Program-made: the position numbers and the translations under genes
Notes under the pieces: generated by a model
The model's input: only the letters and a program-made list of their open reading frames with translations
Databases searched by the model: none
What the model was told of the DNA's origin: nothing
Source: Escherichia coli
Lineage (GTDB): Bacteria > Pseudomonadota > Gammaproteobacteria > Enterobacterales > Enterobacteriaceae
Reading direction: 5' to 3' (one strand)
Length of the DNA stretch: 64,000 nucleotides
Assembly (NCBI RefSeq): GCF_029227855.1
Contig: NZ_CP074356.1
Part shown: positions 51,306 to 54,288 of the stretch, one piece after another
Layout: each line of letters starts with the position of its first letter
Numbering within the stretch: the stretch's first letter is position 1

Positions 51306-52001
51306 TTGTAAACTCCTTGTTAACGTGGTTAATTACTACTTACAATGACCTGCCGTTAATCCCAGACAGGCAGATGCAGCTCACTTCACGGAACCGCATC
51401 ATTTTTCAGTATTTTTTACATACAAACCGAGCTAGAATTTACGGTTGTCGTAAAAACTATTTTTAAAATCATTAAATCTCTTATTCAGCAATAAGTTAAT
51501 AATATATATCTGGATAACCACACCCAACTATTCAAAGTCCGTATTGCCTCCATAAAATGGCCAAAGCTGAATCATGAATAAATATTGTATTTATCCTTTC
51601 TGAATTATCATTTTGATAATTTTTGAGATATTCCTTAAAAATACCCACTTAATCAATCACAAAACAAATATATAAACAAGCAATCATCAGATTAGCTTAT
51701 GTTTAATGAAATTATTTTATAATTCAATAAGTTACACAAAGTCTCTGTATTTAAATTATTGCCATAATACACCTGACGCGAATTGCACAGGTTCACACAA
51801 TCTATTTAACGCTTGCAGAATACCCCTCTTTACGATCGATAAAAAGTCCTTTTCTTATTTATTTTGAAGCGTAGAATGCGGGGTGATGAAGGAGTGGTGA
51901 TTTTATTTTCACCGCCATTATGGCGGCATTGCCGATATTTTTTTGCGGTACAAATATGCCGTGTTCATGGCCTGTACGAGATAACATGACGGATCACTTT
52001 T
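51306..52001. promoter_or_regulatory. AT-rich divergent control region between hcp and tssB
   Basis: About 700 bp, strongly AT-rich, between divergently transcribed hcp and tssB; GATC sites at 51835 and 51991; specific promoter elements not resolved. Confidence 0.4.
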
Positions 52002-52502
52002 ATGAGCAAAAAATTTGAAGGCAGCGTCGCGCCTCGCGAGCGTATTAATATATCGTATGTCCCAAAAACAGATGGCCAGACGGCTGAAGTTGAACTTCCG
52101 CTTAACATGCTCGTTGTCGGCGATACCGGAAATACGCAGGAAACATCCCCACTGGATGAACGTCAGGCAGTTTCCGTTAACAAGCACAATTTCGGTGCAG
52201 TGATGGCTGAAGCAGCCATTGGCCTCAATTTTACTGTCCCCGCCACGCTGAAGGGAAGCACAACAGACGATGAACTGAATGTGGCGCTGAATATCAAATC
52301 ACTGGATGATTTTTCACCAGATAGCGTGGCCCGGCAGGTTCCGGAAGTGAATAAATTGCTGGAACTGCGTGAAGCACTGACTGCACTGAAGGGGCCGATG
52401 GGTAACCTTCCGGCATTCCGTACCCAGCTCCAGGCATTGCTGGAAAATGAAGAGTCCCGCGAGCAGTTGCTCAAAGAAATCGGCCAGGTGAGCAATAAAT
52501 AA
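52002..52502 (+). CDS. tssB: T6SS sheath small subunit TssB (VipA)
   Basis: ORF track, 166 aa, MSKKFEGSVAPRERINISYVP... Confidence 0.9.
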   Translation: MSKKFEGSVAPRERINISYVPKTDGQTAEVELPLNMLVVGDTGNTQETSPLDERQAVSVNKHNFGAVMAEAAIGLNFTVPATLKGSTTDDELNVALNIKSLDDFSPDSVARQVPEVNKLLELREALTALKGPMGNLPAFRTQLQALLENEESREQLLKEIGQVSNK

Positions 52503-52537
52503 CCACCACTATTTCATTAAACAGGGGTTATCCAGGC

Positions 52538-52762
52538 ATGACGGCACACAAAAATATCTCCGGGACATACCACCTCTCTGTTGCAGACATTCTGCAGGTG
52601 GTTTACCAGGTATGTTTCAGCCCGTCCGTTGAAATCAACCAGGATGGTGTGGCTGCGCTGATTACAACACTGGATCGCCGTATCAGTGATCTATTGGATG
52701 AGATTATCCATTTTTGTGAGTTTCAGCAGAGCGCGTCGCACTGGCAGCGCGTACTTCACTGA
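52538..52762 (+). CDS. 74-aa ORF resembling the N-terminal segment of TssC (possible gene fragment or small paralog)
   Basis: ORF track; ...ITTLDRRISDLLDEIIHFCEFQQSASHWQRV parallels tssC ...IADIDERISRQMDVIIHAPAFQQVESFWRSL; weak Shine-Dalgarno; coding status uncertain. Confidence 0.3.
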   Translation: MTAHKNISGTYHLSVADILQVVYQVCFSPSVEINQDGVAALITTLDRRISDLLDEIIHFCEFQQSASHWQRVLH

Positions 52763-52812
52763 TGGCGAAAAGCCGGTTTCAGAAACACAGCTAAAACAGA
52801 AGGATTTTCAGT

Positions 52813-54288
52813 ATGTCTTTACAGGAAGAGGAACTCGTTTCCAGTCATGCCGGGCAGCCTGAGCAGGCATCGTCGCTGCTTGATCAAATCATGGCACAGA
52901 CCCGTATTCAGCCCGGTTCGGAAGGTTATGACGTTGCCCGCCAGGGTGTGACAGCCTTTATTGCCAGCATCCTGCAATCCACTGCATCTGCCGAACCGGT
53001 CAATAAACTGGCCGTGGACAGCATGATTGCAGATATTGATGAACGCATCAGCCGCCAGATGGATGTCATCATCCATGCGCCTGCCTTTCAGCAGGTCGAG
53101 TCGTTCTGGCGCTCACTGAAAACCATGGTGGATCGCGTTGATTTCCGTGAAAACATCAAGGTCAACGTGCTTCATGTCACCAAGCAGGAACTTCTGGAAG
53201 ACTTTGAGTTTGCGCCAGAAATTATTCAGTCCGGATTTTATAAGCACGTTTATTCGTCCGGTTTCGGACAGTTTGGCGGTGAACCCATCGCTGCCGTGCT
53301 GGGCGCTTATGAGTTCAAAAATACCGCGCCTGACATGAAACTGCTGCAATACGTCAGTGCCGTGGGCGCAATGGCGCACGCACCGTTCCTGTCCTCCGTT
53401 TCCCCGGAGTTTATGGGGCTGAACTCGTGGACCGAACTGCCTAATATCAAAGATCTTTATGCCATCTTTGAAGGTCCGGCCTACACCAAATGGCGCGCCC
53501 TGCGAGACTCGGAAGATTCGCGCTATTTAGGGCTTACGGCACCCCGCTTCCTGCTTCGCCAGCCTTATTCACCAACAGATAACCCTATTAAGAACTTTAA
53601 CTATCACGAAGATGTCAGCCGGAACCACGAAGATTATCTGTGGGGTAATACGGCCTGGATGCTGGCGTGCAATGTCGCAGACAGTTTTGCCAAATACCGC
53701 TGGTGTCCAAATATCATCGGTCCGCAAAGCGGCGGCGCAGTGAAAGATCTGCCGGTGCATCTGTTCGAAACGATGGGTCAGATTCAGGCCAAAATCCCAA
53801 CCGAGGTGCTGGTCACCGATCGCCGCGAATTTGAACTGGCTGAAGAGGGTTTTATCACCCTTACCATGCGTAAAGACTCTGATAATGCAGCCTTTTTCTC
53901 TGCAAACTCTGTACAAAAACCGAAGCACTTTCCGGGCAAAGACGCAGAAACCAACTATAAGTTGGGTACGCAGCTTCCTTATCTCTTCATCATCAATCGG
54001 TTAGCGCACTACATCAAGGTGTTGCAGCGTGAACAACTGGGGTCATGGAAAGAAAGGAGCGACTTAGAGAGGGAGCTTAATACCTGGATCCGTCAGTATG
54101 TTGCCGACCAGGAAAACCCGCCTGCGGACGTGCGCAGCCGCAAGCCTCTGCGTGCTGCCAGAGTTGAGGTTATGGATGTGGAAGGCGAACCCGGCTGGTA
54201 CCAGGTCGCGCTGAGCGTGCGGCCCCATTTTAAATTTATGGGGGCAAACTTTGAGCTTTCCCTGGTTGGCCGGTTAGACAGGGAGTAA
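52813..54288 (+). CDS. tssC: T6SS sheath large subunit TssC (VipB)
   Basis: ORF track, 491 aa. Confidence 0.9.
   Translation: MSLQEEELVSSHAGQPEQASSLLDQIMAQTRIQPGSEGYDVARQGVTAFIASILQSTASAEPVNKLAVDSMIADIDERISRQMDVIIHAPAFQQVESFWRSLKTMVDRVDFRENIKVNVLHVTKQELLEDFEFAPEIIQSGFYKHVYSSGFGQFGGEPIAAVLGAYEFKNTAPDMKLLQYVSAVGAMAHAPFLSSVSPEFMGLNSWTELPNIKDLYAIFEGPAYTKWRALRDSEDSRYLGLTAPRFLLRQPYSPTDNPIKNFNYHEDVSRNHEDYLWGNTAWMLACNVADSFAKYRWCPNIIGPQSGGAVKDLPVHLFETMGQIQAKIPTEVLVTDRREFELAEEGFITLTMRKDSDNAAFFSANSVQKPKHFPGKDAETNYKLGTQLPYLFIINRLAHYIKVLQREQLGSWKERSDLERELNTWIRQYVADQENPPADVRSRKPLRAARVEVMDVEGEPGWYQVALSVRPHFKFMGANFELSLVGRLDRE

Follow-up and report, generated by a model that had tools for sequence, protein, structure and literature searches.

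A probable decayed duplicate of the tssC 5' end between tssB and tssC in the Escherichia coli T6SS-2 cluster

The short open reading frame (ORF) lying between tssB and tssC in a type VI secretion system (T6SS) cluster of Escherichia coli is very probably a non-functional, decaying relic of a duplicated tssC front end, and we infer that it has no function as a peptide. The DNA analysed, hereafter the window, is a stretch of 64,000 nucleotides from contig NZ_CP074356.1 (assembly GCF_029227855.1).

Features and annotation of the tssB-tssC interval

The T6SS cluster in the window adjoins yafV/ivy. According to the gene order, rhs, vgrG and hcp lie on one strand, and tssB, the ORF, tssC, tssE, tssF, tssG, tagH(FHA), tssJ, tssK, tssL, tssH and vasI lie on the other. 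Since rhs and an FHA gene are present, the cluster is of the E. coli T6SS-2 type, in the terminology of PMC10711316. The region is 100% identical in strain JNEC-KY178, and the same interval is present in about 2,260 of 5,426 complete E. coli genomes. Between the tssB stop codon, which ends at 52502, and the tssC start at 52813 there is a gap of 310 bp. The features of the interval and its flanks are as follows.

52002..52502, + strand: tssB, sheath small subunit, 166 aa (Pfam T6SS_VipA, E=1e-51; tssB in RefSeq)
52503..52537, + strand: spacer 1, the putative original tssB-tssC intergenic region, with a Shine-Dalgarno-like G-run, AGGGG, now serving the relic ORF (read from the sequence)
52538..52762, + strand: probable relic of the tssC 5' end, read as a 74-codon ORF from ATG to TGA (BLASTP, MAFFT, dN/dS)
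52763..52812, + strand: spacer 2, a putative second intergenic/ribosome-binding copy, AAGGATTTTCAGT-ATG, the working tssC translation-initiation region (match to outgroup spacers; conservation)
52813..54288, + strand: tssC, full length, sheath large subunit, 491 aa (Pfam VipB, E=2e-126; VipB_2, E=3e-45)
52960..53112, + strand: tssC codons 50-100, paralogous to the relic (BLASTP alignment)

In RefSeq the ORF is WP_000123970.1, a 'hypothetical protein', a label that it bears in about 2,250 of the 5,426 complete E. coli genomes. One variant is named "predicted component of type VI protein secretion system" in a JGI source. In strain EDL933, TssB is Z0264 and TssC is Z0262 (PMC6730261), and from this numbering we infer that the ORF is Z0263. 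The literature search returned nothing on the ORF except Z0263 in a gene list, a virulence-gene survey in which it is merely listed beside T6SS genes (PMC10657854). Read-through or fusion of the ORF with tssC was rejected because the two frames differ (starts at 52538 and 52813).

Two further observations concern the surroundings of the interval. The divergent hcp and tssB genes are separated by an AT-rich stretch of about 700 bp (window 51306-52001), presumably the regulatory region of the hcp and tssB operons; its + strand holds four weak sigma-70-like matches, no more than in shuffles. The border of the T6SS island holds a frameshifted ISAs1-family transposase together with a second transposase fragment; both lie between yafV and the rhs element (L001 1352-2814).

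The ORF resembles the N-terminus of TssC

Residues 15-70 of the ORF aligned with residues 50-100 of the adjacent TssC (491 aa), with 20 of 56 positions identical (36%, 35.8 bits, E=3e-8; BLASTP as a single comparison). The sole Pfam match to the ORF was VipB (PF05943, E=0.0026), at profile positions 2-33 of 301, with a score of 17.3 bits, below the cut-off of 27. The best NCBIfam match was the TssC equivalog TIGR03355 (E=5e-4), at profile positions 43-82, with 19.1 bits against a cut-off of 271.5; the only other NCBIfam match was negligible (E=0.14). Among the PDB sequences, all five chains matching at E<=10 were TssC/VipB, and they aligned to VipB 63-100. At the DNA level, 36 of 51 positions were identical between 52695-52745 and 53060-53110 (z=3.7 against shuffles). 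The local nucleotide alignment of relic and tssC was significant only in E. coli; it was not significant in Citrobacter (z=1.7) or Atlantibacter (z=0.3).

Because BLASTP, Pfam, NCBIfam, PDB and DNA alignment converge on the same family and the same region, the similarity between the ORF and TssC is real, if weak, homology. The ORF shares descent with TssC/VipB; it scores below the family cut-offs and does not have the full architecture, a VipB N-terminal domain of about 300 residues followed by a gpW/gp25-like C-terminal domain (about 490 aa), of which both domains are found in the neighbouring gene. A tblastn alignment extending past the relic stop codon reached TssC 63-135 with a score that was no better (E=0.001 versus 1e-5), and since the score did not improve, we do not claim homology beyond the stop. 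Beyond TssC 1-4 and 39-106, nothing significant aligned with the relic.

In the sheath, the N-terminal helices of TssC form a surface "domain 3", where they bundle with the TssB C-terminal helix; the VipB residues that ClpV recognises, 15-28, immediately precede these domain-3 helices (PMC5807055, PMC4632598). The original prediction had described a 74-aa ORF in the 310-bp tssB-tssC gap that resembles the TssC N-terminus, and the five kinds of comparison above agree with it. The pattern that it had pointed out, L..I..D.RIS...D.IIH...FQQ..S.W, is exactly the BLASTP alignment of ORF 15-70 with TssC 50-100; the pairwise alignment proposed as a check is significant at E=3e-8; and the description of the matched region as the part of TssC that contacts TssB in the sheath is roughly right (PMC5807055, PMC4632598).

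Anatomy of the relic and its two spacers

In the MAFFT alignment, which was colinear with the relics of other genera included, relic codons 1-4 correspond to TssC 1-4 and relic codons 5-72 to TssC 39-106, and between the two blocks lies a gap of 34 codons. The missing stretch, TssC 5-38, is equivalent to the ClpV-binding helix of VipB. The relic of Atlantibacter begins MSLRKD, and TssC begins MSLQEE.

The relic ATG lies 36 nt past the tssB stop codon, where outgroup clusters normally have a gap of 2-55 nt before tssC, and spacer 1 resembles, by eye, the single 20-30 nt spacer of outgroups (Rahnella AAAAGGGATTTTTACTatg, AAAAGGGATTTTTACT-ATG). The last 20 or so nucleotides of spacer 2 match the single-copy spacer of Buttiauxella and Rahnella, and the segment directly upstream of the real tssC, AGAAGGATTTTCAGT-ATG, is by eye a near-exact match to that of Buttiauxella. 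The window therefore has the layout spacer, tssC 5' fragment, spacer, full tssC, and this arrangement would be expected if the spacer and about 105 codons had been duplicated in tandem.

A minor length difference was seen in spacer 1. The run upstream of the relic ATG is GGGG in the window (52524-52527) and in JNEC-KY178 and GGG in the other five E. coli-type loci that were read; in spread samples, every other full-length E. coli match was 309 bp long, compared with 310 bp in the window. The difference amounts to an indel of one base in the old ribosome-binding region.

Distribution of the relic and state of its frame

One genome per species with TssC was scanned, giving 68 loci, to which five E. 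coli loci were added, and the tssB-tssC gap could be measured in 56 loci of this set. Ten of the 56 had a gap of 290-310 bp, all with a TssC at least 87% identical to that of the window: six E. coli-type loci, E. albertii NBRC 107761, Citrobacter youngae, Atlantibacter subterranea and Yokenella regensburgei. In the other 46, the gap was 2-55 bp in 45 loci and 141 bp in one (median 23.5 bp). The relic was absent from all 46 of these more distant loci with a measured gap, which include Rahnella, Buttiauxella, Yersinia, Trabulsiella, Halomonas, Photobacterium, Helicobacter and Campylobacter. The relic-homologous stretch was recognisable in every long-gap locus, often with a broken frame. Its state in the five lineages was as follows.

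E. coli, window and both allele classes: relic frame open, 74 codons
Atlantibacter subterranea (L008): relic frame open, 70 codons
Citrobacter youngae (L007): stop at codon 21 of the relic frame
Yokenella regensburgei (L009): frameshift and in-frame stop in the relic
E. albertii NBRC 107761 (L022): start codon missing, several frameshifts and a stop in the relic

Apart from the relic, the examined stretch of C. youngae, Yokenella and E. albertii NBRC 107761 has intact T6SS genes. Some E. albertii have an open ORF (P0015). The ORF has few protein homologues, all source-named ones come from Escherichia (coli, albertii, marmotae), and the protein database holds at least nine rare Escherichia variants that are frameshifted or truncated.

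Within E. coli, 60 complete genomes carrying the interval were sampled evenly, and 59 of them had the ORF intact and annotated. This count says little about selection because E. coli diversity is low here, 1,890 of 2,258 genomes with the interval being at least 99% identical. In simulation, a 74-codon frame kept its start and remained open with a probability of 0.49 when 18 random substitutions had been made and of 0.13 when there were 60, so that an open frame in two of the five lineages is unremarkable. Collectively, the ORF is a truncated homologue of an intact neighbour, shows no purifying selection, is disrupted in orthologous loci and is absent in outgroups, as a gene relic should be.

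Several loci showed peculiarities of their own. In E. coli O157:H7 F8797 (L004 2311-3702, equal to window 52813-54204), tssC is annotated 28 codons short (1392 versus 1476 nt) and is followed by a 90-nt gap before tssE. A CAG->TAG nonsense mutation in vipB (Z0262) has been reported as part of the degeneration of the EHEC T6SS (PMC12981562), and the short tssC fits this published mutation. In two pig isolates, E. coli PI6 (H60) and PI24 (H120), only 89 nt or 43 nt of the interval are left. The retained pieces match window 52529-52617 and 52770-52812 and adjoin an FHA-domain gene or an hcp gene, respectively, which suggests cluster deletions or rearrangements ending in or beside the relic. Finally, a metagenome-assembled genome labelled 'Citrobacter sp.' (HRGM_Genome_0066, DXKH01000078.1; L006) has a TssB 100%, a TssC 99.6% and a relic 98.6% identical to those of E. 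coli, where genuine Citrobacter youngae is only 77-88% identical to E. coli; it is probably an E. coli sequence that was mis-binned or mislabelled.

The ORF evolves without coding constraint

The ORF evolves without coding constraint on its peptide. Two allele classes occur in E. coli, differing at 18 of 225 nt (8%), and 15 of these differences are non-synonymous and 3 synonymous. The dN/dS of the ORF was 1.48 between the two alleles and 1.04 for a mosaic allele, compared with 0.03-0.05 for tssB and about 0.1 for tssC in the same genomes. By binomial arithmetic, at least 15 replacements in 18 changes would have P ~1e-6 under the constraint of the neighbours. Between Citrobacter and Atlantibacter, the relics differed 8, 8 and 7 times at codon positions 1, 2 and 3 (dN/dS 0.55), and the dN/dS of tssB and tssC for the same pair was 0.03-0.09.

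The mosaic allele was found in E. coli MS 69-1 (L003 1501-3786, equivalent to window 52002-54288). Its tssB and the 5' half of its relic are of the divergent allele class (tssB dS 0.216 versus the window), and the 3' half of its relic and its tssC are window-like (tssC dS 0.003). Since the two halves belong to different allele classes, a homologous-recombination breakpoint lies inside the relic. In the E. coli and E. albertii comparisons, the dS of tssB was 2.6-3 times that of tssC.

The divergence of the gap or relic was also set against that of the four-fold sites of tssC. The respective p values were 0.39 and 0.535 for E. coli versus Citrobacter, 0.11 and 0.19 for Citrobacter versus Atlantibacter, 0.28 and 0.28 for E. 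coli versus E. albertii (L022), and 0.07-0.08 and 0.06 for the E. coli window versus L002. Because the gap is slower than the four-fold sites in two of the four comparisons, some constraint on its DNA or RNA is possible; the slower divergence is partly a matter of alignment optimisation and partly due to the conserved last 45 or so nucleotides. Over the 45 nt upstream of tssC, Citrobacter and Atlantibacter show 0 differences, compared with 10.6% in the relic.

This stretch of about 45 nt (window 52763-52812, L007 3133-3177, L008 2956-3000) is also well conserved against E. coli. It is longer than a ribosome-binding site alone requires, and we read it as the tssC translation-initiation region.

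Origin of the relic

The account that we consider very probable is as follows. The ancestral cluster from which those of Escherichia, Citrobacter youngae, Atlantibacter and Yokenella descend would have undergone a duplication, most simply a tandem one, of a segment consisting of the tssB-tssC spacer with its ribosome-binding site and roughly the first 105 tssC codons. The downstream copy, still joined to the rest of tssC, would have remained the working gene, and the upstream copy, severed at the junction, would have been drifting since. This drifting copy would have shed about 34 codons (TssC 5-38, the counterpart of the ClpV-binding helix of VipB), built up substitutions equally at all codon positions, and gained stops and frameshifts in several lineages. 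In E. coli, its frame would be open by chance with the old start codon and a weak Shine-Dalgarno sequence kept, which is why it is annotated by gene callers, and some translation of it may occur. The relic is old, being common to four genera in which tssC four-fold sites have reached a p of about 0.54. The relics of the two deep relic lineages differ at 37 of 99 nt, about as much as relic and tssC do (40 of 99), and the duplication would therefore predate the radiation of the clade by some margin.

Whether the fragment is the cluster's own copy or a foreign one was weighed on the 33-codon core. Here the relic and its own tssC are identical at 59 of 99 nt, with 21, 19 and 19 matches of 33 at codon positions 1, 2 and 3, and the 19 of 33 third-position matches compare with 8.9 +/- 2.6 for random codon pairing (P=0.0005). 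Among real tssC orthologues identical at 17-22 of 33 residues, third-position matches number 8-14, with the exception of Rahnella (L010), which has 20. For two tssC genes diverged under selection to about 40% protein identity, third positions are expected to be saturated. Given that the third positions of the relic are as similar to tssC as the first and second, decay of a DNA copy is favoured. The nucleotide identities of the E. coli relic point in the same direction: E. coli tssC is marginally the highest (59/99), followed by clade members (56-58), Rahnella and Buttiauxella (53-54) and the rest (45-53). Over the 76 positions at which the Escherichia and Citrobacter-group relics agree, own-clade tssC genes match at 50-54 and outgroups at 44-51. 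By parsimony, only 7 sites separate clade tssC from outgroup tssC, and they are split 3:2:2. Placement among TssC N-termini at the protein level was uninformative (own clade 18/45, Helicobacter 20-21/45, others 15-17/45).

The alternative is that recombination with a related T6SS cluster replaced tssC and the downstream genes and left 75-105 or so codons of the resident gene behind. This foreign origin would produce the same spacer-fragment-spacer-gene architecture. It would also suit the identity of only 36% between the relic and the adjacent TssC, the fact that the relic protein is as close to the TssC of Helicobacter or Vreelandella as to its own, and the recombination breakpoint that the L003 mosaic documents in the interval within E. 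coli; the similarity of the relic-relic and relic-tssC distances could equally mean that the fragment arrived already diverged. We nevertheless regard it as unlikely. In an exhaustive phmmer search with the 74-aa query, no TssC donor was found at E<=0.001 among 1.84 billion representative proteins, so that a candidate donor lineage is lacking; the matches were Escherichia-type relic fragments, one 70-aa ORF at 40% identity (P0044) and four long multi-stretch proteins, which we take to be spurious. tssB and tssC have their nearest relatives in common (Citrobacter, Atlantibacter and Yokenella), which argues against a chimeric locus. The even conservation of the three codon positions and the slightly higher identity to own-clade tssC also speak against a foreign source.

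In-place tandem duplication is therefore favoured as the likelier of the two origins, although it is not proven, since the nucleotide signal is weak, with 7 informative sites and non-significant alignments in two genera. The original prediction had suggested a partial tssC duplication left by recombination between T6SS clusters. The duplication is upheld by homology, position, neutral decay and broken orthologues; the recombination between clusters was not shown, there being no closer TssC among the 1.84 billion representative proteins.

Possible functions of the interval

A role of the interval as nucleic acid, for example as a long 5' leader that sets the translation of tssC relative to tssB, with the ORF incidental, would be compatible with a relic origin. 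The length of 290-310 bp has been kept in four genera with no large deletions, the 45 nt before tssC are identical between Citrobacter and Atlantibacter where the relic is not, and the gap is slower than four-fold sites in half of the comparisons. However, no Rfam match and no promoter-like or terminator-like sites were found in the gap, the stability of its predicted fold is unremarkable (z=-1.47), in outgroup clusters about 20 nt of spacer suffice, and an ordinary translation-initiation region can account for the conserved 45 nt. We give such a role only a small chance.

Still less probable is a functional 74-aa protein, which would be a mimic of TssC domain 3 without the ClpV-binding helix that binds the C-terminal helix of TssB and tunes sheath assembly or recycling. 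Within the sheath operon, its start codon is preceded by a G-rich motif; it matches the helix that TssC contributes to the domain-3 bundle with the TssB C-terminal helix (PMC5807055); and residues 36-49 hardly vary among Escherichia variants. Of the 60 E. coli loci sampled, 59 have the frame open, as do some E. albertii (P0015) and Atlantibacter, and two allele classes 8% apart are both intact. Against this, the dN/dS is 1.0-1.5 in E. coli, substitutions between genera are spread evenly over codon positions, C. youngae, Yokenella and E. albertii NBRC 107761 have a disrupted frame, rare frameshift alleles occur in E. coli, the ORF is missing from all 46 more distant loci, and the 'core' differs by 37% of its nucleotides between deep relic lineages, as against 39% for the whole gap. 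A frame that is open and under purifying selection wherever the cluster occurs was thus not what we found.

The proposal that the ORF encodes a small sheath-interacting protein, the other reading of the original prediction, is not supported, given a dN/dS of about 1 and the stops and frameshifts in Citrobacter, Yokenella and one E. albertii. In the suggested comparison of the interval in related loci, the stretch was present in all ten long-gap loci and its frame was often broken. A co-opted, self-encoded decoy in E. coli, that is, a peptide made from the old tssC start that binds the TssB C-terminal helix and damps or times sheath polymerisation or ClpV-driven recycling, is likewise highly doubtful.

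Implications and comparison with known systems

Calling the ORF a tssC 5' relic strikes a false gene from the T6SS-2 parts list. What has repeatedly been called a protein by annotation pipelines, and counted as virulence-associated in at least one survey (PMC10657854), would be an ordinary, rather old gene relic. The duplication would serve as a clade marker, a derived character shared by the clusters of Escherichia, Citrobacter youngae, Atlantibacter and Yokenella, and the ORF would be a small illustration that chance can keep the frame of a dead gene fragment open for a long time. The understanding of the T6SS sheath is unchanged, and the relevance of the relic lies mostly in annotation.

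With TagJ/HsiE1, which binds TssB and ClpV in P. aeruginosa (PMC4632598), the ORF shares only the idea of a small cluster-encoded protein that possibly contacts TssB. No sequence relationship between the two was found in the Pfam and NCBIfam scans, and TagJ is conserved and folded whereas the ORF is a drifting fragment.

The family to which the ORF is related is TssC/VipB (PF05943 + PF18945; TIGR03355). It is homologous to the N-terminal 100 or so residues, the domain-3 helices, and the motif ..D.RIS...D.IIH..FQQ..S.W is common to both. It differs from this family in its length (74 versus 491 aa), in being without domains 1 and 2, the gpW/gp25-like domain and the ClpV-binding stretch, in being under no purifying selection, and in scoring far below the family cut-offs.

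The closest likeness is to the gene fragments left by tandem duplication: a 5' piece with its own ribosome-binding copy sits directly upstream of the intact gene, decays neutrally, carries stops, frameshifts and deletions particular to individual lineages, and is confined to one clade. Unlike the usual fragments of this kind, the ORF is old yet still open in E. coli, and for this reason it is annotated as a protein in thousands of genomes.
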